NCBI GenBank assembly: GCA_947177485.1
Contig: CAMWUR010000004.1
Span: 271-64,270 of the forward strand
Length of the DNA: 64,000 bases
From: an uncultured Helicobacter sp.
GTDB lineage: Bacteria > Campylobacterota > Campylobacteria > Campylobacterales > Helicobacteraceae
Reading direction: 5' to 3'
In this document: piece after piece, positions 1 to 42,789 of the stretch
Layout of the letters: each line of letters begins with the position of its first letter
Numbering within the stretch: the first letter of the stretch is position 1
Position numbers and translations under genes: made by a program
The notes under the pieces: model-generated
Told to the model about the DNA's origin: nothing
Database searches by the model: none
The model's input: only the letters and a program-made list of their open reading frames with translations

Positions 1-67
1 TCGAACATAGACGTGTGCACTGTGGTTGGGGGATTGGAATCGGTGAGTAATGGCTATAGGCGACAGC

Positions 68-814
68 TTATGGAGTCATTATGCTGCTTGCATTATCCCG
101 CGTGCGGGGGGGGGGGGCAGAATGTGCTGCTTTGTTGTCATAGAGCATGACGGCGATGTTGGGCTCACGGGGCATGCGCTTGATGAGGTGGACAACCTCG
201 AGCGCGAGATTAAAAGGCGGCTGGCGCAAGTCGAGCGCGCGGTATTGTGTGGGCAGAATGTCGGCATTGACGCGCTCGCTGATGTCGTTTGCAATCAGCG
301 CATAGCGGAACTTGGGGAGAATCGCGATGAACTCGTGGATTTTTGCATTGGGTAGGTGTTGCAAGACATCTTTGCAGATGAGCAAATCGGCGCTCTGAAT
401 CTGCGCAAAATCGCCATTGTAATGCACAAAATGGACATTTTCTTTCGCATAGCGCGCGTTGTTTGCGTTGATGACGACAGACGCGACGTCATAGCCCGTG
501 TAGGACGCGCCGCCCCAATCGATGTTCTTTGAGAACTGCCAATCGCCACAGCCGACATCAGCGATTGTGTGAATCTCATGTTTGCGCAAAAAATCTTGCA
601 AAAACATCACATAGCCATGTAAAAGCTCCTCTTTGCTGCCGCTACCGCTGCCATTGCCCCACATGTTCGTTTCATAGACGGTGTCAAAGAGTATGTTCAG
701 ATTCTGCGCATTTTGCTTCAAAAGCATGGTTTTAATAAAGTTCAGCTTATTATCAGTTTGTTGCAAGAACATGACGAGTTGCTGAAAGAATCGCTCATCA
801 AGTTGCACGGGCAT
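68..814 (-). CDS. class I SAM-dependent methyltransferase linked to pseC (candidate sugar or flagellar-glycan modification enzyme)
   Basis: ORF 68..856 with a DVGCGDW SAM-binding motif. The ATG at 814 has a GGAAAGGGA SD 5 nt upstream, whereas 856 is a TTG. The 3' tail runs through the C12 tract. Confidence 0.7.
   Translation of the reverse strand: MPVQLDERFFQQLVMFLQQTDNKLNFIKTMLLKQNAQNLNILFDTVYETNMWGNGSGSGSKEELLHGYVMFLQDFLRKHEIHTIADVGCGDWQFSKNIDWGGASYTGYDVASVVINANNARYAKENVHFVHYNGDFAQIQSADLLICKDVLQHLPNAKIHEFIAILPKFRYALIANDISERVNADILPTQYRALDLRQPPFNLALEVVHLIKRMPREPNIAVMLYDNKAAHSAPPPRTRDNASSIMTP
106..117 (+). repeat. G12 homopolymeric tract (C12 on the coding strand of the methyltransferase)
   Basis: Read directly from the sequence: cgtgc-GGGGGGGGGGGG-cag. 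Confidence 0.95.
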
Positions 815-1919
815 CGGCGTCCCTTTCCGCACAAAGTGCGTTGAAGGTTTTGGCAATCTCGACTGCTTGCTCTTCGGTCATTTCTTGGTGGCATGGCAAA
901 GAGAGCTCGGCGAGATAGAAATCATGCGCCACAGGCGTGGCGCTCGAGTCCGCGCCATAGAGCGCATAGGAATTGATAGGCTTGTAATGCACTTGCACGC
1001 CAATGCCCTTTTCGTGGAGCTGCATAAACAGCGATTCTTTGCTGCACCAAAGCGCGCGCGAGAGGAAGATGGGATAGAGATGGTGGGTGCTATACAGCCG
1101 CGAATCGCGCTTGAGCGTGGTGCAATAGGGCGAATTGGCAAAGAGTGAATCATAGAGCCGCGCAATCGCTTCGCGCTTTGCGATGAAGCTATCAAGCCGC
1201 TTGTATTGCGAGATTCCAAGCGCCGCGCCAAGCTCGTTTAGCCGAAAGTTGAAGCCCAAAAATTCCACTTCGCTATTCCACAGCGCCCTTTTTTGCACGC
1301 CATGCGAATGTAGCAGCTGCGCCTTTTGGTGTGCTTTTGCGTCTTTGAACACAACCGCGCCACCCTCTGCTGTGGTGATGGGCTTAATCGCATGGAAGCT
1401 AAAGATGGTCGCGTCTGCAAAAGAGCCCACAGGAGAATCGCCCACGCGCGCACCGAATGCATGCGAGCTGTCAGAAATCCAGAGCAAGCCATGCTTTTGA
1501 GCGATATGCGCAATGGAATTGACTGCAACAGATTGCCCGGCGTAATCCACGCTCACAATCGCCTTTGTGCGGGGGGTGATGAGGCTTTCGATTTTGTTTG
1601 GGTCGATGTTGCCATTTGGCAAGATGTCGCAAAAAACGGGCTTTGCGCCGAGCGCAAGCAGCATGTTGGTCGTGGCGACAAAGCTAATGGGTGTGGTGAT
1701 GACTTCGTCATCGCGCCCGATTCCAAGCGCAGAGTAGGCGCAATACAACGCCGAAGTAGCAGAGTTGAGCGCAAGCGCATAGGGAGCGCCGGCGCGCGCG
1801 GCAACGAGGCTTTCAAACTCGCTAACGCGCTGCCCTTGTGTGAGATGCGAGCTAAACAGCGCCTCTTTGAGTGCCTCTAGGTCCTCGCTATTCACCGATT
1901 GCTTGCTGTATGGAATCAT
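798..1919 (-). CDS. pseC: UDP-4-amino-4,6-dideoxy-N-acetyl-beta-L-altrosamine transaminase (DegT/DnrJ/EryC1 family, pseudaminic acid pathway)
   Basis: 373 aa. The segments TTPISFVATTNM, SVDYAG and SFHAIKPITTAEGG match H. pylori PseC as I recall it. Confidence 0.8.
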   Translation of the reverse strand: MIPYSKQSVNSEDLEALKEALFSSHLTQGQRVSEFESLVAARAGAPYALALNSATSALYCAYSALGIGRDDEVITTPISFVATTNMLLALGAKPVFCDILPNGNIDPNKIESLITPRTKAIVSVDYAGQSVAVNSIAHIAQKHGLLWISDSSHAFGARVGDSPVGSFADATIFSFHAIKPITTAEGGAVVFKDAKAHQKAQLLHSHGVQKRALWNSEVEFLGFNFRLNELGAALGISQYKRLDSFIAKREAIARLYDSLFANSPYCTTLKRDSRLYSTHHLYPIFLSRALWCSKESLFMQLHEKGIGVQVHYKPINSYALYGADSSATPVAHDFYLAELSLPCHQEMTEEQAVEIAKTFNALCAERDADARAT

Positions 1920-2681
1920 CTAGGCTAGAAGCGTATCGATTTTGCTACGCAAATATTGCGTGTTATAGACGTTCGCATACAATGCAGCATTCTCTTTTAA
2001 TTTTGCCTGATTCAGCTCGTTATAATTTTCGGCAACATCATTATTTTGTTGGCTGCTTTCTGCTGCTGTGAGATTCACGATTGTAACGAGATTGGAATTG
2101 ATACCATGTTGGATTCCGTTCATCACCGAACCGATATTGGCACGTTCCATATTGACATTTGTCATGAAATCAAGGATTGTTTGTTGGTCGTTCACATCAA
2201 CAAGCGAGGTATTGGGTGCATTGATATTGAGCGTAACGCTTGTTTCGTTGCCTGTAACAAAGGTCAGCTCGGACGCGAAGACATTTTTGCCATTGAATGA
2301 AGCCTGCATGACAGAATCGCGCATGCTCGCCTTGAGCGCGTTGGTTTCGCTCTGAATCATCGCACGTTGCTCGGTTGTGAGCGTATCGTTGCCGAGTTTG
2401 ACGGAAAGCACATTGATTCTGTCTGCTGTGGCTGTCATGTTGCCGAGAGTCGAATCCGCGATTTGCAACATTCCGATTGCATCGTTTGCATTGCGCACAC
2501 CCTGTGTGAGCCCCGAGATTTGAGACAAAAGCGAATCTGCAATCATGAGGTTTGCACCATCTGTTCCTTGCAATGCACGCATTGCCGCGATGTTTTCAAG
2601 CGCACTTTTCTCTTCGTTTTTCGCTTTGTTTGCGTTGTTGTTCGCTGTTGCGTTGATAGTCTGACTTTCACCGATTTTCAT
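1920..2681 (-). CDS. flaC: short flagellin-family protein, FlaC-like (flagellin N- and C-terminal segments, no central domain)
   Basis: 253 aa. ALENIAAMRAL, DAIGMLQIADS and a C-terminal KENAALYA..LLA align with Campylobacter FlaC as I recall it. Confidence 0.7.
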   Translation of the reverse strand: MKIGESQTINATANNNANKAKNEEKSALENIAAMRALQGTDGANLMIADSLLSQISGLTQGVRNANDAIGMLQIADSTLGNMTATADRINVLSVKLGNDTLTTEQRAMIQSETNALKASMRDSVMQASFNGKNVFASELTFVTGNETSVTLNINAPNTSLVDVNDQQTILDFMTNVNMERANIGSVMNGIQHGINSNLVTIVNLTAAESSQQNNDVAENYNELNQAKLKENAALYANVYNTQYLRSKIDTLLA

Positions 2682-2738
2682 TGTTGACTCCTTGTCGTGT
2701 TTGATGAAGAACTAATATGAATCCTTCTGCTTTTACTC

Positions 2739-2755
2739 AAGCAATTACTGTTCCA
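2739..2755 (-). promoter_or_regulatory. candidate RpoN (sigma-54) promoter for the flaC-like gene
   Basis: The minus strand reads TGGAAC-agtaa-TTGCTT (GG-N10-GC spacing), about 58 nt upstream of the ATG at 2681. It overlaps the accC stop codon. Confidence 0.55.
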
Positions 2756-4079
2756 AATATTTGGTATGGATGCGATTTTCTCGAAAATCTTGATTTTGCA
2801 TCATTTTTTGGTGGAACGGAATCACCGTGCGTACTCCTTGTATGGTGAATTCATCGAGCGCGCGGCTCATGCGTGCGATTGCCTTTTGCCGTGAATCGCC
2901 CCATACAATCAGCTTGCCAATCATTGAATCATAATGGATTGGAATGGTATAGCCCTCGTAAGCGTGGCTATCGACACGTACAAATGCACCGCCCGGGGCG
3001 ATGAAGCGCACAATCTTGCCGGGGCTTGGAAAGAATCGTTCAGGGTCTTCGGCTGTGATGCGGCATTCAATCGCATGTCCGCTAAAGTGGACTGATTCTT
3101 GCTTGAACAATTCCTCGCCTTGCGCGATACGAATCATCCACTCGACAATGTCGATTCCACTGACCATTTCGCTCACGGGGTGTTCGACTTGCAAACGTGT
3201 GTTCATTTCCATAAAATAGAAATTCTGTGTCGAATCGAGCAAAAATTCAAATGTGCCTGCGCCGACATAATGGATTGCACGTGCGACTTCGACAGCCTTT
3301 TCGAGCAGCTTTGCGCGTGTTTCGGGCAGAAGCGCGATTGCTGGAGATTCTTCAATCAATTTTTGGTGGCGGCGCTGCATCGAGCAGTCGCGCTCGCCGA
3401 TGTGTACGACATTGCCATGTTTGTCGGCGAGAATCTGTACTTCGATATGTTTGGGATTATCGATGAACTTCTCCATATAAATTGTACCATCGCCAAATGC
3501 GCTAATCGCTTCGCTTTCAGCAGCGAGGTAGGCATTGATGATGTTGTCCTCGCTTTGGACAATGCGCATTCCGCGCCCGCCGCCGCCGCTTGCTGCTTTG
3601 AGAATCACGGGGTAGCCGATTTTTGCTGCTTCTTCTTTGGCATGCTCATGCCCTTTGAGCGCGCCTTCGCTGCCCGGAATCACGGGCATACCGATTTGTT
3701 TCATGACTTCTTTTGCTTTGCTTTTGTCGCTCATAAGCGCCATGACTTCGGCGTTTGGACCGATGAACTCGATTCCATGTGCTTGACAGATTTCGACAAA
3801 GGCTTGATTCTCGCTCAAGAATCCATAGCCAGGAAAAATGGCATCGGCGCCAAAAAGCTCGGCAGCAGAAATGATTGCGGGCATGTTGAGGTAGCTTTCA
3901 TTTGATTTGTCGCCGCCCACACAGACTTTTGCGTCAGCTAAGTCGAGATAATGCGCCTCTTTGTCGGCTGTGGAATAGACAGCAATTGAATATTTGCCCA
4001 TTTCGCGAATCGTGCGAATCGCGCGCAAGGCAATCTCGCCACGATTGGCAATCAGAATTTTTTGCAGATTCTTTTGCAT
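2745..4079 (-). CDS. accC: acetyl-CoA carboxylase biotin carboxylase subunit
   Basis: 444 aa, typical ATP-grasp biotin carboxylase sequence, immediately downstream of accB. Confidence 0.95.
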   Translation of the reverse strand: MQKNLQKILIANRGEIALRAIRTIREMGKYSIAVYSTADKEAHYLDLADAKVCVGGDKSNESYLNMPAIISAAELFGADAIFPGYGFLSENQAFVEICQAHGIEFIGPNAEVMALMSDKSKAKEVMKQIGMPVIPGSEGALKGHEHAKEEAAKIGYPVILKAASGGGGRGMRIVQSEDNIINAYLAAESEAISAFGDGTIYMEKFIDNPKHIEVQILADKHGNVVHIGERDCSMQRRHQKLIEESPAIALLPETRAKLLEKAVEVARAIHYVGAGTFEFLLDSTQNFYFMEMNTRLQVEHPVSEMVSGIDIVEWMIRIAQGEELFKQESVHFSGHAIECRITAEDPERFFPSPGKIVRFIAPGGAFVRVDSHAYEGYTIPIHYDSMIGKLIVWGDSRQKAIARMSRALDEFTIQGVRTVIPFHQKMMQNQDFRENRIHTKYLEQ

Positions 4080-4519
4080 TAGAGGCGCTCCACAATGAAT
4101 AAGACTTCGCCATATTCGACTGGTTGCGCATCAGCAGGCACAATCTCGAGAATCTTGCAATCATACTCGGCTTCGATTTCGTTCATGATTTTCATCGCCT
4201 CGATGATAGCAAGCGTTTGTCCTTTTTTGACTTTGTCGCCAACCTGTACATACGCAGCGCTCCCGGGTGAGGGCGAGCGGTAGAATGTCCCAACCATAGG
4301 CGATGTCAAGGTATCGCCTTCTTTTTTGGGCAATGGTGTGATGTCGTCATCATTGTCTTTTTGCACCAAAGGTGCTTGTACCATGATTGTTTGTGGTTCG
4401 ACTTTTGTTGCATGCCCTTTTTCGAGCTTTAAGACAAAATCGCCTCGTTGGATATGCAGCTTTGTTGATTGTGTCGAATCGAACAAAAGAACCAATTCTT
4501 TGATTTCCTCAAGCTTCAT
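4079..4519 (-). CDS. accB: acetyl-CoA carboxylase biotin carboxyl carrier protein
   Basis: 146 aa with the EAMKIMNEIEA biotinyl-lysine motif. Confidence 0.95.
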   Translation of the reverse strand: MKLEEIKELVLLFDSTQSTKLHIQRGDFVLKLEKGHATKVEPQTIMVQAPLVQKDNDDDITPLPKKEGDTLTSPMVGTFYRSPSPGSAAYVQVGDKVKKGQTLAIIEAMKIMNEIEAEYDCKILEIVPADAQPVEYGEVLFIVERL

Positions 4520-4579
4520 TGTTGTCCTTAAAAATTTTGCGTTATAATACCATAAATCTCTATGACTTTAGGAAACGTA

Positions 4580-5140
4580 ATGGGGCTCAAAGAGGATAAA
4601 TGGATTTTGCAAAAAGCATTACATGAGCAGATGATTGTGCCATTTTGTGAGAATCAGGTGGGCAAGGGCGTGATTAGTTATGGATTGAGTAGCTATGGTT
4701 ATGATATTCGCGTGAGTGATGAATTTAAGATTTTTACCAATATCAATACCACCGTTGTTGACCCCAAAGATTTTCAGCTCTCCAATACGATTGATTTTCG
4801 TGGCAATGTTTGCATTATTCCGCCTAATTCTTTTGCGCTCGCACGTACAATCGAATATTTTAAAATCCCACGCAATGTGCTTGCCATTTGTGTCGGCAAA
4901 AGCACCTATGCGCGTTGTGGGATTATTGTCAATGTTACGCCTTTTGAGCCAGAGTTTGAGGGATATATCACGATTGAGATTAGCAACACAACGCCCTTGC
5001 CCGCCAAAATCTATGCGAATGAGGGCATTGCACAGGTGTTGTTTTTCGAGGGTGATTGCGATTGCGAAGTGAGCTATAAAGACAAGAATGGCAAATACCA
5101 AAAGCAACAGGGAATCACGTTACCTCGCATTGTGGAGTAG
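4580..5140 (+). CDS. dcd: dCTP deaminase
   Basis: ORF 4562..5140. The internal start MGLKEDKWI matches the Helicobacter Dcd N-terminus and gives 186 aa. Confidence 0.9.
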
Positions 5141-5150
5141 GAGTTTGGGC

Positions 5151-6485
5151 ATGAAAGAAGCATTCATCTATCCCAATGGTATTACGGGGCGCATGCTCGG
5201 AATCATGATGACTCATCTATACAATATCCCGATTCATTATATCGATGATAGCGCGCCAGAAACCTCATTGCAAGCGCATGCCAAGACATTGCGCGAAAGG
5301 CAAATCACCGTTCTTGTGCCGCGAAGTCCTTATAATGAACAAACGGCAGATGTGCTTTGTGCCAAGTTACGAGCTGAAGGTATTGCCTATAATGACAATG
5401 CGCTTGAGGAGCTTGCGTTGCAGAGTATCGCCGCAATCGATGCGCTCTTGCGCGAGCGACAAAAACCAACCATCGCGATTGAGATGACAGGTATGGCAGA
5501 CGATAAGCATATTGGTCTCATTGATTCGGAACTTTTATCGCGCAATGCTGATGTGCAGATTCTCTATCTCTGTGGATTGCCCGAGCCATTTGCCAAAGTA
5601 CGTGCGCAGATTGAAGGTAGTGGGGGGGGGGGCAGGAATTGTCTAGTGCGCGCTTTGCCGTCTTTTTATTTTCATCAACTCTCTTCTATACAGGCTCTCA
5701 TCAAAACTTCAATGTACTTTAGCAACAAAAACTCCCATGTGCCGACTTTTTATCTCGGGCATGCGCTCGTTGATTGGACAAATTATCAGCAAAACCAACT
5801 TCATTTGCTTCAGCAGGAATCCTATGATTACGCATGCGTTGCGGGGGAGGATTTTTTGCCCCGCTCTCGCGAAGATTGCTATCTCCATTCGGGCTATCTC
5901 GGGTTTGATAGAATTGCGCCCGACATAAGTGGCGAGACATTTGCGCCCCGAAACATTGTCCTTTTTGCCCCCTACAACATGGACGAAATGTGGAAAATGT
6001 TTGGATTGGTCAAAGCCACATTGTCGGAGCAAGGGGGGATTTATGACGTGCGCTTGCGTGTGCGCTACCGCAACGTGGGTGAGCCATCGAGCCATTGGGA
6101 TAGTGAGGGTATGGCGCAGATTCTCGCGCAACTCTCTTGCTATTCCAATTTTTCCATAGACGAAAATGAACATATTGTGCCGCAATCTTATAACGAGACA
6201 TTTTGTTGTGTTTGTGGTGCAACCACAATGCGCTATACCTATCCTCTGCTTGCCTTGCGCCCATCGATTGTGCTTGCCGATGGCGCACATGTGTTGCCAA
6301 GTGCGTTGGGAATTGTGTTTGAGACGAGTGCGGAAGCACAATTCATGGAGATTTTAAATGACGTCTATACCAAACAAGAAACATGGCATAGCACTCTCTT
6401 GCAATATAGAAAGCAGAAAATCTATCATTTTGGTCGCGCTAGCGCATGGCTTGCAGATTTTGTTCTCAAAAAACTAGGGTTGTAG
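5151..6485 (+). CDS. hypothetical protein with an internal G11 tract; weak resemblance to glycosyl/glycerophosphate-transferase folds
   Basis: ORF 5088..6485. The ATG at 5151 follows a GGAG and the dcd stop. No confident family assignment from the sequence alone. Confidence 0.6.
   Translation: MKEAFIYPNGITGRMLGIMMTHLYNIPIHYIDDSAPETSLQAHAKTLRERQITVLVPRSPYNEQTADVLCAKLRAEGIAYNDNALEELALQSIAAIDALLRERQKPTIAIEMTGMADDKHIGLIDSELLSRNADVQILYLCGLPEPFAKVRAQIEGSGGGGRNCLVRALPSFYFHQLSSIQALIKTSMYFSNKNSHVPTFYLGHALVDWTNYQQNQLHLLQQESYDYACVAGEDFLPRSREDCYLHSGYLGFDRIAPDISGETFAPRNIVLFAPYNMDEMWKMFGLVKATLSEQGGIYDVRLRVRYRNVGEPSSHWDSEGMAQILAQLSCYSNFSIDENEHIVPQSYNETFCCVCGATTMRYTYPLLALRPSIVLADGAHVLPSALGIVFETSAEAQFMEILNDVYTKQETWHSTLLQYRKQKIYHFGRASAWLADFVLKKLGL
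5622..5632 (+). repeat. G11 homopolymeric tract inside CDS 5151..6485 (encodes GGGG)
   Basis: Read directly: ggtagt-GGGGGGGGGGG-cagg. Confidence 0.95.
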
Positions 6486-36353: not shown

Positions 36354-37541
36354 TTATCCAACCTTACTACCAATGTCCTTAAAGCTAGAATCTAACATGC
36401 AATTCTCCAAGCTTCTTTGGGAAAATAAAAATCGTCCATCACATACAAAACCTAGTTCCTCCCAATCTACATTATTGAGTCTCTCGCATAATTCTTGTAA
36501 GATATTAGAATCTACTTCAAATTTTGGAAAAACCGCCAAAATAGAGCCATCATAAGCCTTGCAAGAATGCAGGAAAAAAGGCTTTTTATTTCGAGTTTTG
36601 GTATTAACATAGATTCGTGGTTGTTCGCTTTTGTGGTAGTCTCTGCCCCATTGCCACCAATTGTTTTCATTAAATCTTTTAATTTTTCTTTGTAATAATT
36701 TTTGTTTAAATTCTTGCAAATATACACAATCTTTGGCATAGATTCCATAAATCATTCTTTTTGTTTTGCCACTTTTTGCCGTAGTAGAATTTACAAAATC
36801 TACATTACCCCATTGTTGATTTGCAAAAATAGAATCTGCTCCACTTACCGCACCAACTTTCACAAAAAATAATGAGCTAAAGGGAATACTATAAGATTTT
36901 TTAGTAAAAAGAATCTGCCCATTGATACAACTAAATTCCCTCAAACATTGGGTTTTTCGCCCAAAATTACCTTTTTCAAATCTCCATATCGCACAATTTG
37001 GTTGAGCCTTGTTAAAAATCTTTTTATCTCCCAAATCTATAAAATCTGTTATGCTACCTTGCGAGAATAAAAACTTATTGAGTTTTATGCTTGCTGTGCT
37101 TTTTAGAAAATCTCTAGGGGTGATAAAAATTAATTCCCCCTTATCTTTTAAATGCAAGATGGACTTATAGATAAAAAATAAATACAAATTCGAGCGAGAA
37201 TCAAAGATATTCTTATAGGCATTTAAAAGAAATTTTGTAGAATCCAAAATATCTTGATAACGCACATAAGGAGGGTTGCCAATAATGCAATCAAATTTTT
37301 CACTCACAGGATAGCTAAAAAAATCAACTTTCAACACAGACTTATCGCAAACTACTTTAGAATCTAATTCTATGCCTACTTTGTTGTTGGGTAAATTTTC
37401 AAAAAATGCTCCATTTCCACAGCTTGGCTCTAAGAATCTAGGATTAGAAAGCTTTTTTGTGCTTTGAATGAGATTTAACATATCATTGACAATATGCGGT
37501 GGTGTGAAAACTTGCCCTAAATTTTCTACATCAAGATTCAT
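36354..37541 (-). CDS. gamma-class N6-adenine DNA methyltransferase (M1), paralog of 20518..21714
   Basis: 395 aa with GQVFTPPHIV, EPSCGNGAF and GNPPYV. Collinear with the 398-aa paralog along its whole length. AT-rich. Confidence 0.85.
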   Translation of the reverse strand: MNLDVENLGQVFTPPHIVNDMLNLIQSTKKLSNPRFLEPSCGNGAFFENLPNNKVGIELDSKVVCDKSVLKVDFFSYPVSEKFDCIIGNPPYVRYQDILDSTKFLLNAYKNIFDSRSNLYLFFIYKSILHLKDKGELIFITPRDFLKSTASIKLNKFLFSQGSITDFIDLGDKKIFNKAQPNCAIWRFEKGNFGRKTQCLREFSCINGQILFTKKSYSIPFSSLFFVKVGAVSGADSIFANQQWGNVDFVNSTTAKSGKTKRMIYGIYAKDCVYLQEFKQKLLQRKIKRFNENNWWQWGRDYHKSEQPRIYVNTKTRNKKPFFLHSCKAYDGSILAVFPKFEVDSNILQELCERLNNVDWEELGFVCDGRFLFSQRSLENCMLDSSFKDIGSKVG

Positions 37542-38154
37542 AAAAATATCTCCTAAAATGGAGGTAAGCTTCGGCTCTTAGCTTTAAGGATTGCTCAAAA
37601 GTTTCAAGCAAAAATCTTTTTGCACTTTCAAAGTCTCTCGCAACAATATTGCGATTGTTATCCCATTTTGCTTGAAAGGGTAAATTATTCCCATTTGGCA
37701 AAATAGATTCTAGGCTTTTTAGCGAAGTGGCAAAAACATCGCTGGGATTATCCTTATTAATAATCAAAAAACAATAATCTTTTGTGTTTTCTTGGATATT
37801 TTCTTTAAGATTTTTAAAATAGCAATCCCAACTTACACCATTACCAAAAGGCGGAATCTTGCCTGTTAGGGCATAATATATTCCAAGTTTGCAATTAAGA
37901 TTATCGGTAGTTTTTGTTGTGCTTACCTTGATATTAACAGGGTAAAAACTATTATTTTCCTCAAAGCTGAAATCTATCCAATCACGCATATTTGGACGAT
38001 TGATTGCAAAGTTTGATTCTAAGCATTTAAAAATTTCATCCTCATTAAAGGCAGAATTTATCCTACCATCTCGACTTTGCTTACTTAAAGCAATTGGGTT
38101 TATTTGTAAAAACTCTACAATTTGAATAAGCAAATTTGGCATAACTTGGCTCAT
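37531..38154 (-). CDS. putative type II restriction endonuclease (R1) partnered with M1
   Basis: 207 aa with an 11-nt overlap with M1. Possible PD-(D/E)xK-like core DWIDFSF...VNIKVS (MspI/HinP1I-style D..N.K). Assigned by context only. Confidence 0.45.
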   Translation of the reverse strand: MSQVMPNLLIQIVEFLQINPIALSKQSRDGRINSAFNEDEIFKCLESNFAINRPNMRDWIDFSFEENNSFYPVNIKVSTTKTTDNLNCKLGIYYALTGKIPPFGNGVSWDCYFKNLKENIQENTKDYCFLIINKDNPSDVFATSLKSLESILPNGNNLPFQAKWDNNRNIVARDFESAKRFLLETFEQSLKLRAEAYLHFRRYFYES

Positions 38155-38169
38155 TTTATTTCTTTATCC

Positions 38170-38778
38170 TCAAACTTGGTTCTGCTGTCTATCTACATTC
38201 TCTGCAGCCAATCTTTCTTGTATAATTTCAATTAGAACTTCGCACAATACATCAAAATAGCCATATTCAAAGTAAAAATACTCCACCTCCTCTGTTCGTG
38301 CCCTTTCACTCATATATCTAAATTGAGTAAAGATGTCTTGATTATTTACCAAAAGACTTTTTATGTCTTTTTCTCTTTTTTTATTAGGTGGTGTAGAATT
38401 ATTAAATTTTTCTTTTGAGTTTTCAGAGGTAACACCACGAATAAATAACTCTGGTATTTTCTTGTCTCGAATGTAAATATTATATTTGTTGCAAATTGCA
38501 TCTTGAGTATCTTTGTCTATTTTTTCAAATAGTTTATATAAATCATGTGTTCTATCTGGCTTCTCTCCACTTTCTCCCGAAATAATAGTTTTCAATAGTA
38601 GCTCAATAGCTAAACCATAATTGGTAGCTGATGCAAAAAGCTCAAATGGAGTCATGCTTCGTTTTGCCTCATGTATTTGAGTGTAGATTCTAGCTAACGA
38701 CCAAAAACAAATTGCGCTTCCATATGAAGTTATATAATCATTTTCCTCACACCCTTTAAATTTTTTATTTGTTGCCAT
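38170..38778 (-). CDS. HEPN-like domain protein (202 aa) immediately upstream of R1-M1
   Basis: ORF 38170..39009 trimmed to the ATG at 38778, the first codon after repeat B. YGLAIELLLKTIISG..KPDRTHDLYKLFEKI and FTQFRYMSE resemble the HEPN (PF05168-type) helices. Confidence 0.5.
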   Translation of the reverse strand: MATNKKFKGCEENDYITSYGSAICFWSLARIYTQIHEAKRSMTPFELFASATNYGLAIELLLKTIISGESGEKPDRTHDLYKLFEKIDKDTQDAICNKYNIYIRDKKIPELFIRGVTSENSKEKFNNSTPPNKKREKDIKSLLVNNQDIFTQFRYMSERARTEEVEYFYFEYGYFDVLCEVLIEIIQERLAAENVDRQQNQV

Positions 38779-38996
38779 TTTCACATCTCCGTCTTCAACG
38801 CCGCGCCATTTGCGGCATTGCTCACAAGCAGCGCATAGCGGCGCAACCATTTGCTTGGAATCTCTTTTTTGATAGGCTTCCATTTGCCTTACATGCTTCC
38901 AAAAACCAAAGTCCATTTCATAATTAAATCCTTTATCCAACTTTGCTGCTAATGTTCTTAAGCTAGAATCTAGCATACAATTCTCTAGACTTCGTA
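38776..38996 (-). repeat. copy B: ilvD 3' end (about 125 bp) + spacer + 3' fragment of an M1-type methylase gene
   Basis: 38776..38903 is near-identical to 40478..40603. 38904..38996 aligns with 36325..36415 (spacer plus M1 codons RSLENCMLDSS...) with a 1-nt deletion that removes the stop. Confidence 0.9.
38933..38996 (-). pseudogene. 3'-terminal remnant of an M1-type methyltransferase gene
   Basis: It translates as RSLENCMLDSS, as does the M1 C-terminus. It is frameshifted after DSS and truncated at the HNH-gene stop. Confidence 0.8.
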
Positions 38997-38998
38997 CA

Positions 38999-39574
38999 TT
39001 ATTTTTCATATTGCCTCAAATATTCTATTACTTTTTCTAAAAATTTTGGATTATCTTTAAACCTACCAAGTCCAGTATTGCAACTATCGCATATCCACTC
39101 TCTACCTTCACCTGTTTCATGATTATGGTCTCGAACAAGATTTGCTGTAATTCCTACAATGCTTCTTTTTTCACAAATTGGACATGTGAAAACACTGCCT
39201 TTTGGTGGCGCAAGTTTGTCCATTCGTTTCTTTTCAGCAATAGAAAGCTTTACGCCATCAATTTGTTTTCTACATTCTCTGCAACTCGGTCTTGTTGTTT
39301 TGTTGCCTTTTGCATCGGTTTGATTTATTTCAAAATTATCGGTATTTTTTAAGATATGACAAATATTGCAAATTTTAACATCAAACCCCTTTCCTGTTTT
39401 ATAAATATCAATAGATTCCAAATCTTCATATTTCATTTTCTTAATCTCATTAACGCCTATAAATAAAACCATTGCAAAATTTCCATTAAGAGCCTTAACA
39501 ATACCCACAGAATTTTCTGCTATATTGTCAATTTGTTTATTCGCAATTACAAAACTATCGATATTTATATGCAT
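38999..39574 (-). CDS. HNH / endonuclease VII-type (beta-beta-alpha-Me) nuclease with Cys4 zinc sites; putative restriction endonuclease (R2)
   Basis: 191 aa with VRDHNHETGEGREWICDSCNTGLGRF and the pairs CNIC, CRECR and CPIC. Its size and layout recall Hpy99I. 10-nt overlap with M2. Confidence 0.6.
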   Translation of the reverse strand: MHINIDSFVIANKQIDNIAENSVGIVKALNGNFAMVLFIGVNEIKKMKYEDLESIDIYKTGKGFDVKICNICHILKNTDNFEINQTDAKGNKTTRPSCRECRKQIDGVKLSIAEKKRMDKLAPPKGSVFTCPICEKRSIVGITANLVRDHNHETGEGREWICDSCNTGLGRFKDNPKFLEKVIEYLRQYEK

Positions 39575-40380
39575 AAGACATTCCTATATTTATCTAGTCT
39601 TTTTCTTGCCATCTCAATATATTCTTGACTTATATCTACTCCTATAAAATTTCTTTTGGCTAAAAAAGCCATTTTACATGTTGTGCCAGAGCCACACATC
39701 GGGTCAAATACAATATCTCCTTCATTGCTCCAAGATAAAATATGGTCTTGTGCAAGCTGTTCAGGATACATAGCTGGATGTTGAAAGGCTTCCCTATCAT
39801 TTGTTGTTCCACCAAGTCCTACTGCATAATACCAAATGTTCGTTTTTGTTTTTTCTTTTTTTAGCTCCTTTAGAACCTTATGGTTTTTTCCATCTGATTT
39901 TTTGTTGGCAACCAACATTTCTAAGCCGCTTCTTGCAGTTTCTTCTTTTAGAGGATTAAAGGTTTTTGGCTTTCCTTTAGAAAAAACAAACATATATTCA
40001 TAACTATTGGTATAAGCATTTGAGCGCATAAAAGGCGTATTTTTCTTTGCATATATCATTGTGTCATGCACGTTAAACCCAATTTGTTGAAAATATAAAG
40101 CCTGTTTAAAGCTCGTTAAACTTTTATTGCCATTTTTGATTTTATCGCCCACAACCCAAACAACAACACCGCCATTTTTTGTAATTCTAAAAATTTCATT
40201 GGCAATATTTTCAAAATCAAAGTTATATCCATTGTAATCTCTTAGGTCATCATAAGGCGGAGAGGTTACAATCAAATCAATACAGTTATTGCTTACGTTG
40301 TTTTGCATAAAATGTACACAATCATCTACATAAAATTTATTTAATAAATGATTATAGTTTTTGTAAATTGTTTGTGTCAT
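39565..40380 (-). CDS. beta-class N4-cytosine/N6-adenine DNA methyltransferase (M2)
   Basis: 271 aa with DLIVTSPPY (SPPY motif IV) followed by the C-terminal FDPMCGSGTT (motif I). Confidence 0.85.
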   Translation of the reverse strand: MTQTIYKNYNHLLNKFYVDDCVHFMQNNVSNNCIDLIVTSPPYDDLRDYNGYNFDFENIANEIFRITKNGGVVVWVVGDKIKNGNKSLTSFKQALYFQQIGFNVHDTMIYAKKNTPFMRSNAYTNSYEYMFVFSKGKPKTFNPLKEETARSGLEMLVANKKSDGKNHKVLKELKKEKTKTNIWYYAVGLGGTTNDREAFQHPAMYPEQLAQDHILSWSNEGDIVFDPMCGSGTTCKMAFLAKRNFIGVDISQEYIEMARKRLDKYRNVLCI

Positions 40381-40477: not shown

Positions 40478-40603
40478 CATTTTCACATCTCCGTCTTCAA
40501 CACCGCGCCATTTGCGGCATTGCTCACAAGCAGCGCATAGCGGCGCAACCATTTGCTTGGAATCTCCTTCTTGATGGGCTTCCATTGCGCCTTACGTGCC
40601 TCC
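40478..40603 (-). repeat. copy A: the native ilvD 3' end (the duplicated target)
   Basis: It is the functional end of ilvD including its stop codon, and is near-identical to 38776..38903. Confidence 0.9.
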
Positions 40604-42789
40604 AAAACAGCGGAATCCACGAGCAGCTCGAGCGTCCCCTTGCTCACCGAAATCGCGATTCTATCGCCGTCTTCAATCAGCGCAATGAGCCCCCCCTCTG
40701 CCGCTTCGGGGCTGACATGCCCAATGCAGCCCCCACGTGTCGCGCCGCTAAAGCGCCCGTCCGTAATCAGCGCAACCGATTCTCCAAGTCCCATTCCCAT
40801 AATGAGACTTGTGGGGGTTAGCATTTCTTGCATTCCGGGTCCTCCCTTTGGTCCCTCGTAGCGAATCACAACGACATTCCCCGCCTTTACCTTGCCACCC
40901 GCAATGCCCTTAATCGCCTCATCTTGCGAGTTGAAACACACCGCACTTCCCTCAAACTCTTTCATAGATTCCGCCACTGCGGCGACTTTGAGCACCGCGC
41001 CCTCACGCGCAAGATTGCCATAGAGGATTTTTAATCCACCCATTTGCGAATACGCGTTTTCATTGTGGCGAATGATATTAGAATCCGTAATCTCCGCCCC
41101 CGCAATGCGCTCACCCAGTGTCTCGCCTGTAATCGTGAGCGCGTCAAGATAGAGCGTATGCGGCGGAAGTTGTGGTAAATCAAGGATAAAAAAATCGCTA
41201 ATTTCTTTAGGATAAAACGGAGCATAAGCCACAGGCAATTGCTCATAAGGAACTTGCCTAAAGCCCATTTTTGTATAAAATTCCCGATTTTGCTGCGTGG
41301 CTTCGGGCGTATCAAAAATAAGCTCGCCAAAGTTTAATCCACCCGTATAAGTATTAATATAGCCCTTATTAGGACTATCGGCAATCAATGTTTTATAATG
41401 CGATCGCTCAAGAAATGCAAACAACTCGGCACAAAGTCGATTTACAAGAGAAATGGACGAATAATATCTTTGATGAATGATGAATTTTTTTAGGATTCCA
41501 ATGCCTTTTTGCTCTTCATAAACACCGATACAACCAACGACTTCTTCGCCCTCAAGAGCAATCCAAAATGCACCATTTTTATAATAATCAGCAATATTAT
41601 GCAAGTCAAGTTGAGTTTTAAGATATGCCTTACGCCATAAATCATCGTGATTGTCGTAATTCAAAACAAGAGAAATCACAGCCTCTTGATATTTTTGCAA
41701 TTCTTTTGTAAATCGCATAATGCGAATCGAATCTGTTGTTCCGCTTGTTTTAAAATCTAGCTCAAAGGCAGCGTTACCCCTTTTTGCCACCTCATTCATC
41801 ACGGCACTGACGCCACCGGCGCGGTGAATATCCTCCATATGCACGTTACTAAGGGCAGGGGCGATTTTGGCGATGTGTGCCACTTGGGAGGCAAGTGCGT
41901 TGATAGAATCTAGGTTAAAATCCACCTCCGCTTCTTTGGCGATTGCGAGCATATGCAGAATCGTATTCGTGCTTCCACCCATTGCCATATCTACGACAAA
42001 GGCGTTATGCACAGCTTTTTGATTCAAAATATTGCGGAATCTAAACTTTTCGCTTTTTTGCTCATCAAGCGCGATTTCTACGATTCTACGCGCTGCTTTG
42101 CGTAAAAGCTCCTCGCGCTCCTTGCTAAGGGCTAGAATCGTCCCATTTCCGGGCAGCGCAACACCCATAGCCTCACAAAGCGTATTCATAGAGTTTGCGG
42201 TAAACATTCCACTACAACTTCCGCCACTTGGGCACGCATTGCATTCTATTTCGTGTAACCTTTTCTCATCAATCTTGCCCTCATTAAACGCGCCCACCGC
42301 TTCAAAGGCAGAGTTTAAATCTAGTATTGTGCCGTCCTCTAGCTTGCCCGCACGCATTGGACCGCCACTCACAAAGATTGTCGGCACATTCACGCGCAAA
42401 GCACCCATAAGCATTCCGGGCACGATTTTATCGCAGTTTGGGATACAAATCATCGCGTCCAAACTATGCGCATTCATCATTGTTTCAATAGAATCCGCAA
42501 TCAGCTCGCGGCTTGGCAGAGAGTAGAGCATACCGCTATGCCCCATTGCGATTCCGTCATCTACACCGATGGTGTTAAACTCAAAGGGCACGCCACCCGC
42601 AGTGCGAATCTCCTCTTTGATGATTTGCGCGTATTTATTTAAGAAAAAATGCCCGGGAATAATGTCAATATAACTATTTGCAATGCCGATAAAGGGCTTG
42701 TTAAAATCCTCGTCCTTTAGACCGGTAGCGCGTAATAAACTTCTGTGGGGGGCTCTTTGGAATCCCTTTTTAATGGTGTCGCTTCGCAT
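40483..42789 (-). CDS. ilvD: dihydroxy-acid dehydratase carrying a 206-aa internal GNAT-like insertion
   Basis: 768 aa. The IlvD/Edd motifs ([29 protein letters not shown]) are intact on both sides. Minus the insertion the protein is 562 aa. Confidence 0.9.
41155..41772 (-). other. in-frame 618-bp AT-rich insertion encoding a GNAT-type acetyltransferase-like domain within ilvD
   Basis: It lies between ..[10 protein letters not shown] and [11 protein letters not shown]... The insert contains [38 protein letters not shown] and [13 protein letters not shown] (GNAT beta4-alpha3 and motif B patterns). Confidence 0.7.

Follow-up and report, generated by a model that had tools for sequence, protein, structure and literature searches.

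The ilvD gene and its inserted block

The stretch of DNA analysed here (the window) comprises 64,000 nt of contig CAMWUR010000004.1 (positions 271 to 64,270), from assembly GCA_947177485.1 of an uncultured Helicobacter sp. Its ilvD gene, encoding dihydroxy-acid dehydratase (DHAD), lies on the reverse strand and specifies a protein of 768 amino acids (aa), within which a 206-aa block predicted to have the fold of a GNAT acetyltransferase interrupts, in frame, what is otherwise a complete short-form enzyme. The features of the gene are as follows.

40483–42789 (-): ilvD open reading frame (ORF), dihydroxy-acid dehydratase with an embedded GNAT domain; 768 aa plus stop (ORF list, Pfam, match to structure 6nte)
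41779–42789 (-): N-terminal part of IlvD, aa 1–337; ILVD_EDD_N; aligns to 6nte residues 6–330
42403–42435 (-): IlvD/EDD signature 1, residues 119–129; PROSITE C-D-K-x2-P-[GA]-x3-[GA]; invariant in the IlvD alignment
41773–41778 (-): G338-N339, remnant or start of the variable loop; both junctions codon-aligned against the insert-less contig L008
41155–41772 (-): inserted block AAFELDFK...LPPHT, aa 340–545, 206 aa
40486–41154 (-): remainder of IlvD, aa 546–768; ILV_EDD_C at 571–762; 6nte residues 337–557
40738–40773 (-): IlvD/EDD signature 2, residues 673–684; PROSITE ...T-D-[GA]-R-x-S-[GA]...

The Pfam models ILVD_EDD_N (PF00920; residues 31–338, E 1.5e-126, 422 bits, profile positions 1–299 of 316) and ILV_EDD_C (PF24877; residues 571–762, E 4.7e-76, 255 bits) lie on either side of the block. 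The N-domain model extends for another 17 profile positions beyond the insertion point, which separates the last N-domain helix (...VMNEVAKR) from a short terminal segment leading into the inter-domain connecting loop. The part of IlvD beyond the block thus comprises the last ~17 residues of the N-domain model, the connecting region and the C-terminal domain. The nearest solved structure, the 561-aa DHAD 6nte (E 1.6e-137), is matched as two segments, the alignment stopping at its residue ~333 and restarting at 337, so that a tight turn is replaced by the insert. Deletion of the block leaves 562 aa, comparable to insert-less relatives (563–564 aa), and the flanks, which are 92–96% identical to insert-less Helicobacter IlvD of 563–572 aa, together make up a complete short-form protein. 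At the junction the nearest insert-less allele reads AKR-KESV-LYLDAL, with a 4-aa turn, where the window has AKR-GN-[206 aa]-LYLDAL; measured against that allele, 208 aa (GN and the 206-aa block) take the place of the turn.

The insert has a G+C content of 0.369 compared to 0.479 and 0.552 in the flanking parts of ilvD. At third codon positions (GC3) the value is 0.29, relative to 0.51 and 0.61 in the flanks and 0.52 for the median gene of the window, and only the restriction-modification island downstream of ilvD (see below) is as AT-rich within the window. All 206 of these AT-rich codons are nevertheless open, while the remaining five frames carry between 5 and 23 stops, and the probability of a stop-free frame arising by chance is ~5e-7. 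The preliminary description of this DNA, made from the letters alone, had placed a 206-aa block at nt 41155–41772 of a 768-aa IlvD, with 562 aa left upon its removal, and had considered it a stop-free, in-frame insertion of a GNAT-fold domain in an IlvD loop, far more AT-rich than its flanks and foreign-looking in composition. The coordinates proved exact and the remaining points were borne out.

Signature 1 provides a cluster ligand, Cys119, and the Mg ligands Asp120 and carbamylated Lys121, while signature 2 holds the catalytic Ser (PMC5770437). Both are intact in the window. Among insert-bearing lineages the IlvD core shows a ratio of nonsynonymous to synonymous substitution rates (dN/dS; all selection estimates are by the Nei-Gojobori method) of 0.03–0.07, as in a normal essential enzyme, which points to a functional dehydratase. 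Given the low core dN/dS and the two intact PROSITE signatures, the earlier suggestion that ilvD might have been inactivated is rejected.

Fold and probable remodelling of the embedded domain

The inserted block can be divided into a GNAT-fold body, two linkers and several segments in which it departs from its free-standing relatives.

41719–41772 (-): N-terminal linker, aa 340–357, 18 aa; predicted local distance difference test (pLDDT) 46–67; no counterpart in free-standing GNATs
41176–41718 (-): GNAT-fold body, aa 358–538; aligns end to end with ~160-aa free-standing GNATs
41434–41484 (-): degenerate acetyl-coenzyme A (acetyl-CoA) loop, beta4-alpha3, aa 436–452; column comparison with 110 free-standing members
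41326–41397 (-): internal loop specific to embedded copies, aa 465–488 (24-aa segment); a 22-aa gap in all free-standing sequences
41260–41289 (-): alpha4 motif, His of 'SHxFY' changed to Arg (R502); column analysis
41188–41214 (-): YPKEISDFF, replacing the family motif YPDRxSxLY (DR to KE); invariant across embedded copies
41155–41175 (-): C-terminal linker PQLPPHT, aa 539–545, 7 aa; beyond the end of free-standing homologues

Taken alone, the insert only just exceeds the cut-off of the Pfam model Acetyltransf_1 (PF00583; 22.4 versus 20.7 bits) and falls short of that of Acetyltransf_7 (22.7 versus 27 bits). A scan of NCBIfam gave no match for the insert, whereas its free-standing relatives do match acetyltransferase models. 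A word-indexed search with the insert alone also returned nothing, a limitation of the index, but relatives were found both by tblastn, which aligned the insert with annotated free-standing GNAT genes at 30–33% identity and 84–95% coverage (E to 6e-17), and by an exhaustive phmmer search of 1.8 billion representatives, which returned 94 proteins, mostly of ~160 aa (best E 3e-14). The ~160-aa relatives score 44–61 bits on Acetyltransf_1. A profile built from the inserts and these relatives matched the PDB entries 2q7b (1e-47) and 3d8p (3e-45), both structural-genomics deposits, so that the GNAT homology proposed earlier is upheld by profile searches.

The AlphaFold2 model of the insert alone (mean pLDDT 78, predicted template modelling score 0.75) has the topology beta1-alpha1-alpha2-beta2-beta3-beta4-alpha3-beta5-alpha4-beta6-beta7, the canonical GNAT order, and the GNAT region is also confident within the model of the full-length protein. 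Foldseek superposed the insert model on 2q7b with a template modelling (TM) score, normalised to the target, of 0.85 (root-mean-square deviation 2.2 A) and on 3d8p with a target TM score of 0.88, and returned 542 PDB matches at E<=1e-3, of which the listed top matches are all GNATs. Modelling had been proposed as a check on the fold, and the outcome (pLDDT 78, target TM 0.85–0.88) agrees with a GNAT. The three GNAT motifs quoted in the preliminary description are real, and map to beta2/beta3, the beta4-alpha3 loop and alpha4-beta6 of the model.

In the alignment the free-standing proteins begin with a Met opposite Met358, and their C-termini lie opposite FFILDL, the last strand of the insert. 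By sequence, then, the insert appears to be a complete copy of a once free-standing GNAT protein of ~160 aa that was captured in frame, and the modelled domain is an autonomous GNAT fold carried on linkers of 18 and 7 aa. No Shine-Dalgarno-like sequence was evident by eye before Met358, and separate expression of the GNAT is therefore not supported. Compared to the free-standing proteins, the body has an additional 22 aa between alpha3 and beta5. Although of low pLDDT, this internal loop (aa 465–488) is conserved in the five lineages that carry the insert (see below), with invariant D, P, N, G, Y, Y, T and F. An origin of the loop by tandem duplication of beta5 was considered and rejected, as LIADSPN and LIFDTPE agree at no more than 6 of 24 nucleotides.

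Alignment columns were compared between 110 free-standing family members and the five embedded lineages, with the following differences.

Arg of the beta4-alpha3 acetyl-CoA loop: free-standing 99%; embedded Y, A or L (5/5)
Gly of the beta4-alpha3 acetyl-CoA loop: free-standing 95%; embedded S or H (5/5)
His in alpha4 ('SHxFY'): free-standing 100%; embedded R (5/5)
Gln of 'IQN': free-standing 100%; embedded D, N or E (5/5)
'DR' of 'YPDRxS': free-standing 94% and 97%; embedded KE (5/5)

Other positions have been kept, namely the F of KKFFV and the D of LDTP in all five embedded lineages, and an N, the K of KKFFV and the Tyr of FY in four of the five. Of the subfamily-invariant residues tested (IQN, EEQPD, KKFFV, R...G loop, LDTP, SHxFY and YPDRxS), the insert does not carry the full set; it derives from the 2q7b/3d8p subfamily but has diverged too far to count among its regular members. 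Motif A, [QR]xxGx[GA], has no match in the insert; among the free-standing members it occurs literally in 51 of 110 and in relaxed form in 98 of 110. Two of the replacements, R502 and YPKEISDFF, are invariant among embedded copies.

The acetyl-CoA loop had been called degenerate from the first, and the replacement of the family Arg and Gly in 5/5 embedded copies confirms this. Since these two residues and the alpha4 His are lost in every embedded copy, canonical acetyl transfer has most likely been lost, and the domain is most likely no longer a canonical acetyltransferase. On the evidence of the alignments it was most likely remodelled after capture and is now constrained for something else, the most likely role being a non-catalytic one, either structural or regulatory. 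A regulatory insertion was among the three outcomes named in the preliminary description, and may apply.

Distribution, exchange and selection

The same architecture, as the exact protein or as close variants, recurs in ~30 contigs that come from separate samples and assemblies (NCBI, ENA and Logan); one ENA record names a yellow-necked field mouse co-assembly. The encoded proteins (762–768 aa) fall into five 90%-identity clusters representing at least five diverged lineages of uncultured Helicobacter, and include a RefSeq member, WP_297681517.1, that is annotated 'dihydroxy-acid dehydratase [Helicobacter sp.]'. A scan with patterns built from insert-specific peptide motifs found carriers in 2 of 185,579 GTDB species representatives, both of them metagenome-assembled genomes of uncultured Helicobacter, and in one JGI metagenome contig. 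Every pattern match lies in an ilvD ORF of 762–768 aa (that of contig L015 is listed as 785 aa, with an upstream TTG). The recurrence of the architecture in so many independent assemblies disposes of the chimeric assembly that had been named as a possible refutation. No description of an IlvD-GNAT architecture was found among 8 million full texts searched, in line with the earlier remark that no such description was known.

Insert identity among copies ranges from 48 to 97%, while the junction anchors are identical. Besides these anchors, all embedded copies have the internal insertion and several derived substitutions in common, and the shared 22-aa loop, DR to KE change and H to R change argue for a single capture event. 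The capture is old, because copies that share these derived features have nonetheless diverged down to 48% aa identity, with a synonymous divergence (dS) above 1; the description of the domain as recently acquired does not hold for the capture itself. The cassette may nonetheless have reached this genome only recently, through recombination with a different Helicobacter ilvD allele. The named free-standing relatives are mostly from Bacillota, together with Paraburkholderia replicons; among the GTDB representatives and JGI metagenomes, the motifs specific to embedded copies were not found in any free-standing protein. The GC3 of the insert is ~0.29–0.33 in the window and in contigs L001, L004, L010 and L012, compared to 0.37–0.69 in the host ilvD core, so that the embedded copies have not ameliorated despite their ancient divergence.

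Comparison of ilvD alleles shows a fine-scale recombination mosaic, in which third-position divergence, scored in 40-codon windows, jumps from 0.00 to ~0.5. The ilvD of the analysed stretch is identical to that of L008 in codons 40–100 and to that of L010 in the last ~60 codons. Relative to L004, third positions of the core are ~0.45 divergent and those of the insert ~0.15, the shift falling at the boundaries of the insert. L012 and L015 carry almost the same insert as the window, yet ilvD is all that these genomes have in common with it, and their gene order differs (aminotransferase - Cu-ATPase - ilvD). The insert-less contig L008, on the other hand, has the MarR-YceI-ilvD synteny of the window and is collinear with it for 7 kb at 94.8% nt identity, the alignment breaking exactly at nt 41783 and 41155. 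Taken together, the mosaic gene and these comparisons show that the insert behaves as a cassette, which enters or leaves the gene when the conserved flanks of ilvD recombine homologously. It is a presence/absence polymorphism at about the species level, since closely related genomes differ in carrying it.

Across the whole insert dN/dS is 0.11–0.32, and at the protein level it evolves 4–7 times faster than the core. The constraint is unevenly distributed. Between lineages, the ratio of nonsynonymous to synonymous differences per site (pN/pS) is near neutral in the linkers (0.5–0.9 for the N-terminal, 0.3–0.9 for the C-terminal), and is ~0.2–0.5 in the GNAT body and the embedded-specific internal loop, which are thus constrained. 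A folded domain under selection, held by flexible tethers, leaves just such a pattern, which indicates that the insert has been retained under purifying selection in several gut-associated lineages of uncultured Helicobacter. A scan for co-adaptation between core and insert detected only lineage-linked substitutions, and nothing convincing.

The loop that follows NEVAKR is hypervariable in length in enterohepatic Helicobacter (5–210 aa). It was measured in 112 Helicobacter IlvD clusters that are 85–96% identical elsewhere, with the following result.

5 aa: 15 clusters
6 aa: 7 clusters
9 aa: 27 clusters
14 aa: 36 clusters
49–63 aa: 21 clusters; low-complexity (H. japonicus, H. rodentium, MIT 05-5294)
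162 aa: 1 cluster (P0015); unrelated insert
204–210 aa: 5 clusters; GNAT

From these lengths the GNAT insertion is the extreme of a generally permissive, insertion-prone site, a point that the preliminary description had missed. The shorter loops look like nested subsets of the longer ones, as in NASLGSHSADSILY compared to NSSLGSHSADS[44 aa]DSILY. Protein P0015 (720 aa; L009:1809–2298), from an H. japonicus-like lineage, carries a different insert of ~160 aa in the same IlvD loop, nested inside a low-complexity insert of the H. japonicus type. It gives a weak EVE (PUA-like) signal, with E 0.006 for Pfam PF01878 and E 0.7 for the PDB structure of PH1033; if that signal is real, a second, unrelated domain would have been captured at the same site. 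The sole mention of IlvD in the EVE paper concerns gene neighbourhood only.

In the H. japonicus-type ilvD (P0031, L018:11012–11167) a 156-nt in-frame insert encodes a low-complexity loop of 52 aa. As single-stranded DNA it is predicted to fold into a long imperfect hairpin (minimum free energy -20.6, versus -11.8 +/- 2.7 for shuffles, z -3.2), recalling in-frame palindromic elements such as the Rickettsia palindromic elements (RPEs). Neither 22 kb of that genome, nor the other loci, nor the window contained a second copy of the 156-nt insert. An explanation of the ~50-aa inserts as RPEs or miniature inverted-repeat transposable elements was therefore set aside: the H. japonicus insert is hairpin-prone, but without a second copy in the DNA examined.

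Interpretation and surrounding region

The explanation we favour, with moderate confidence, is that this ilvD encodes a functional DHAD bearing an anciently captured, selectively retained and recombination-mobile GNAT-fold appendage that is probably non-catalytic. A free-standing GNAT gene would have been captured once, in frame, into a surface turn of IlvD, and the captured domain would then have gained its 22-aa internal loop and the DR to KE and H to R changes. Purifying selection would keep the embedded domain while the linkers drift almost neutrally, and homologous recombination between ilvD alleles would spread the cassette or remove it. The domain would have survived without a catalytic role, serving either as a structural or docking module or as a regulator that senses a ligand and acts on the dehydratase, with DHAD catalysis unaffected in kind.

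Several observations weigh against this explanation. The insert-less allele in a closely related genome makes clear that some backgrounds, at least, can do without the insert, and the purifying selection on it might come from no more than the requirement that a domain inside an important enzyme remain folded. GNATs bind the pyrophosphate of acetyl-CoA largely through backbone amides, so the changes of Arg to Tyr, Ala or Leu and of Gly to Ser or His do not prove that binding has been lost. The FY Tyr, a common general acid of GNATs, is retained in four of the five embedded lineages, and the free-standing family is itself one without a known substrate, in which only 51 of 110 members have a literal motif A. 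The IlvD core of the full-length model is too poor (mean pLDDT 45, from an alignment of near-identical IlvD sequences only) to place the modelled GNAT against the dehydratase or its active-site lid; any effect on the lid or on the dimer interface is speculative.

A bifunctional dehydratase/acyltransferase, as entertained in the preliminary description, would have the embedded GNAT acting as an N-acyltransferase, on an amino acid or pathway metabolite for instance, fused to DHAD for channelling or co-regulation. The fold is complete in every secondary-structure element, selection on the body is purifying, the hydrophobic core is mostly kept, as is the FY..GF motif, and the Acetyltransf_1 score is just over its cut-off (22.4 versus 20.7 bits). 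We nevertheless regard such an activity as rather improbable, and the proposal as disfavoured: the Arg, Gly, His, Gln and 'DR' pair conserved by the family in its cofactor and active site are replaced in all five embedded lineages, motif A and NCBIfam matches are lacking where the free-standing relatives have the latter, and the substrates and products of DHAD, from established pathway knowledge, have no amine to acetylate. Somewhat easier to entertain, though still unlikely, is a neutral passenger, tolerated in a permissive loop and in frame only because disruption would damage IlvD. Loops of 5 to 210 residues are accommodated at this site, among them low-complexity sequence and the unrelated ~160-aa insert; a ~95%-identical genome has an insert-less allele; the insert evolves 4–7 times faster than the core at the protein level; its cofactor site is degenerate, and core co-adaptation is not convincing. 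Against a passenger, the insert has been kept free of internal deletions across lineages with dS above 1, though recombination offers insert-less alleles. Features specific to the embedded copies, such as the loop at aa 465–488 and the Arg of the alpha4 motif, are among the best conserved parts while the linkers drift, which suggests a new constraint after capture.

The sharp compositional discontinuity and the source, a metagenome-assembled genome, might be taken to indicate a chimeric junction, or foreign DNA that has made ilvD a pseudogene. With ~30 contigs from independent runs and assemblers, 48–97% insert identity and identical junction anchors, together with a frame open against a chance of ~5e-7, purifying selection on insert and core and intact catalytic signatures, this is close to untenable. 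Hardly more probable is a selfish in-frame element, whether an intein or a transposon-like or MITE-like sequence, that homes into ilvD or is excised from the protein or the RNA. As with inteins, the insert is in frame in a highly conserved gene, is polymorphic in presence and has a foreign-looking composition. However, there is no Hint/intein Pfam match and the GNAT fold accounts for the whole insert. The junction (A.../...HT, then Leu) has no N-terminal Cys or Ser, no C-terminal Asn and no Cys, Ser or Thr at +1, and in other lineages the first residue of the insert is Gly, Thr or Pro, so the earlier remark that intein features are missing stands. No target-site duplication and no terminal direct or inverted repeats were found around the insert, no phage matches to it and no defence-system match (PADLOC) were found, and ordinary homologous recombination in a mosaic ilvD explains its spread.

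A further possibility, which we consider improbable at present, is that the remodelled GNAT is a new allosteric or sensor module that couples the flux of branched-chain amino-acid and pantothenate precursors to a small-molecule signal and circulates, by recombination, as a selectable regulatory cassette in gut Helicobacter. The module would be tethered beside the inter-domain connecting region of DHAD and respond, for instance, to an amino acid or a CoA thioester; alternatively, it might affect the stability of the oxygen-labile Fe-S site. If that were so, the IlvD loop would be a domain-capture hot spot, taking up a GNAT, an EVE-like domain and ~50-aa hairpin-encoding inserts, that could be watched at the population level. 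The GNAT fold is used as a non-catalytic, CoA-dependent regulator by PanZ (PanM), which regulates PanD in pantothenate synthesis. It is a conceptual precedent for a GNAT as sensor, and the pantothenate/CoA pathway draws on the DHAD product 2-ketoisovalerate, but PanZ is a separate protein that keeps acetyl-CoA binding, unlike the embedded domain with its degenerate cofactor loop. GNAT domains also occur fused with other enzymes, as in the N-acetylglutamate synthase fusions, Elp3 and TmcA.

Among known proteins, the flanks of the insert, with both Pfam domains and both signatures, resemble short-form DHADs (PDB 6nte and 6ovt; IlvD of H. hepaticus and H. typhlonius), differing in that 6nte has a turn of 3–4 residues (~333–337) where this Helicobacter IlvD has 206–208 extra residues. 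The insert is homologous from first to last strand, at 30–40% identity, to the GNATs 2q7b (Streptococcus agalactiae) and 3d8p (Staphylococcus aureus); the embedded copies differ in having no start or stop of their own, an additional 22 aa, two linkers and the loss of conserved residues. Inteins are likewise in frame, compositionally foreign and present or absent between close relatives, but the Helicobacter insert has neither the Hint fold nor splicing residues and should remain part of the mature protein. In the IlvD/EDD fold a long connecting loop joins the N-domain to the C-domain, and the active site lies at the dimer interface beneath a mobile helix-loop-helix cover (PMC5770437). Lineage-specific beta-hairpins occur in the connecting region of the Shewanella 6-phosphogluconate dehydratase, where the hairpin packs against the active-site helix-loop-helix lid, and of the Caulobacter xylonate dehydratase (residues 409–417) (PMC5770437). 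These resemble the present case in that extra structure is tolerated around the boundary of N-domain and connecting loop. They are, however, of ~10–14 residues and fixed within subfamilies, whereas the Helicobacter insert is a whole foreign domain, ~17 residues upstream of that boundary and polymorphic within the genus.

Both protein families and inserted domains are well known, and no concept is overturned by these findings. Their interest lies in a clean natural case of domain insertion, with a whole foreign gene in a highly conserved Fe-S enzyme, caught while still polymorphic, kept by selection, exchanged by recombination and coexisting with insert-less alleles. The domain is a candidate GNAT pseudoenzyme, in which the constraints on the loop at aa 465–488 and on YPKEISDFF suggest a function acquired after capture. 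The insert also marks an experimentally useful permissive site in DHAD, which is targeted by herbicides and antimicrobials and forms a bottleneck in pathways engineered for isobutanol and pantothenate.

Directly downstream of ilvD is an AT-rich island (nt 36354–40380; G+C 0.31–0.34, GC3 0.20–0.27), which includes the following genes.

39565–40380: N6/N4 DNA methyltransferase
38999–39574: His-Me finger/endonuclease VII-type restriction enzyme
38170–39009: weakly HEPN-like ORF

The pair of methylase and nuclease is missing from the insert-less L008, and other restriction-modification genes occupy the same position elsewhere (HaeII, Pab1 and DNA_methylase in L001; Pab1 and D12 in L006). In H. japonicus-like genomes, a gene for a free-standing GNAT of 163 aa lies ~1 kb downstream of ilvD (L009:3944–4435; L018:12764–13255). 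It was considered as a donor of the embedded domain and rejected, as the two are unrelated (the best blastp match covers 13 aa, E 0.012).

At residues ~44–50 (nt ~42640–42660) this Helicobacter IlvD reads IIPGHFF, with Gly-His in place of the Cys found in the 2Fe-2S DHAD 6nte (TITPCNMG). The E. coli enzyme, of the 4Fe-4S type, reads similarly at these positions. The cysteines that serve as cluster ligands are not all conserved across the IlvD/EDD family (PMC5770437), and the cluster type of the present IlvD may therefore differ from that of 6nte.

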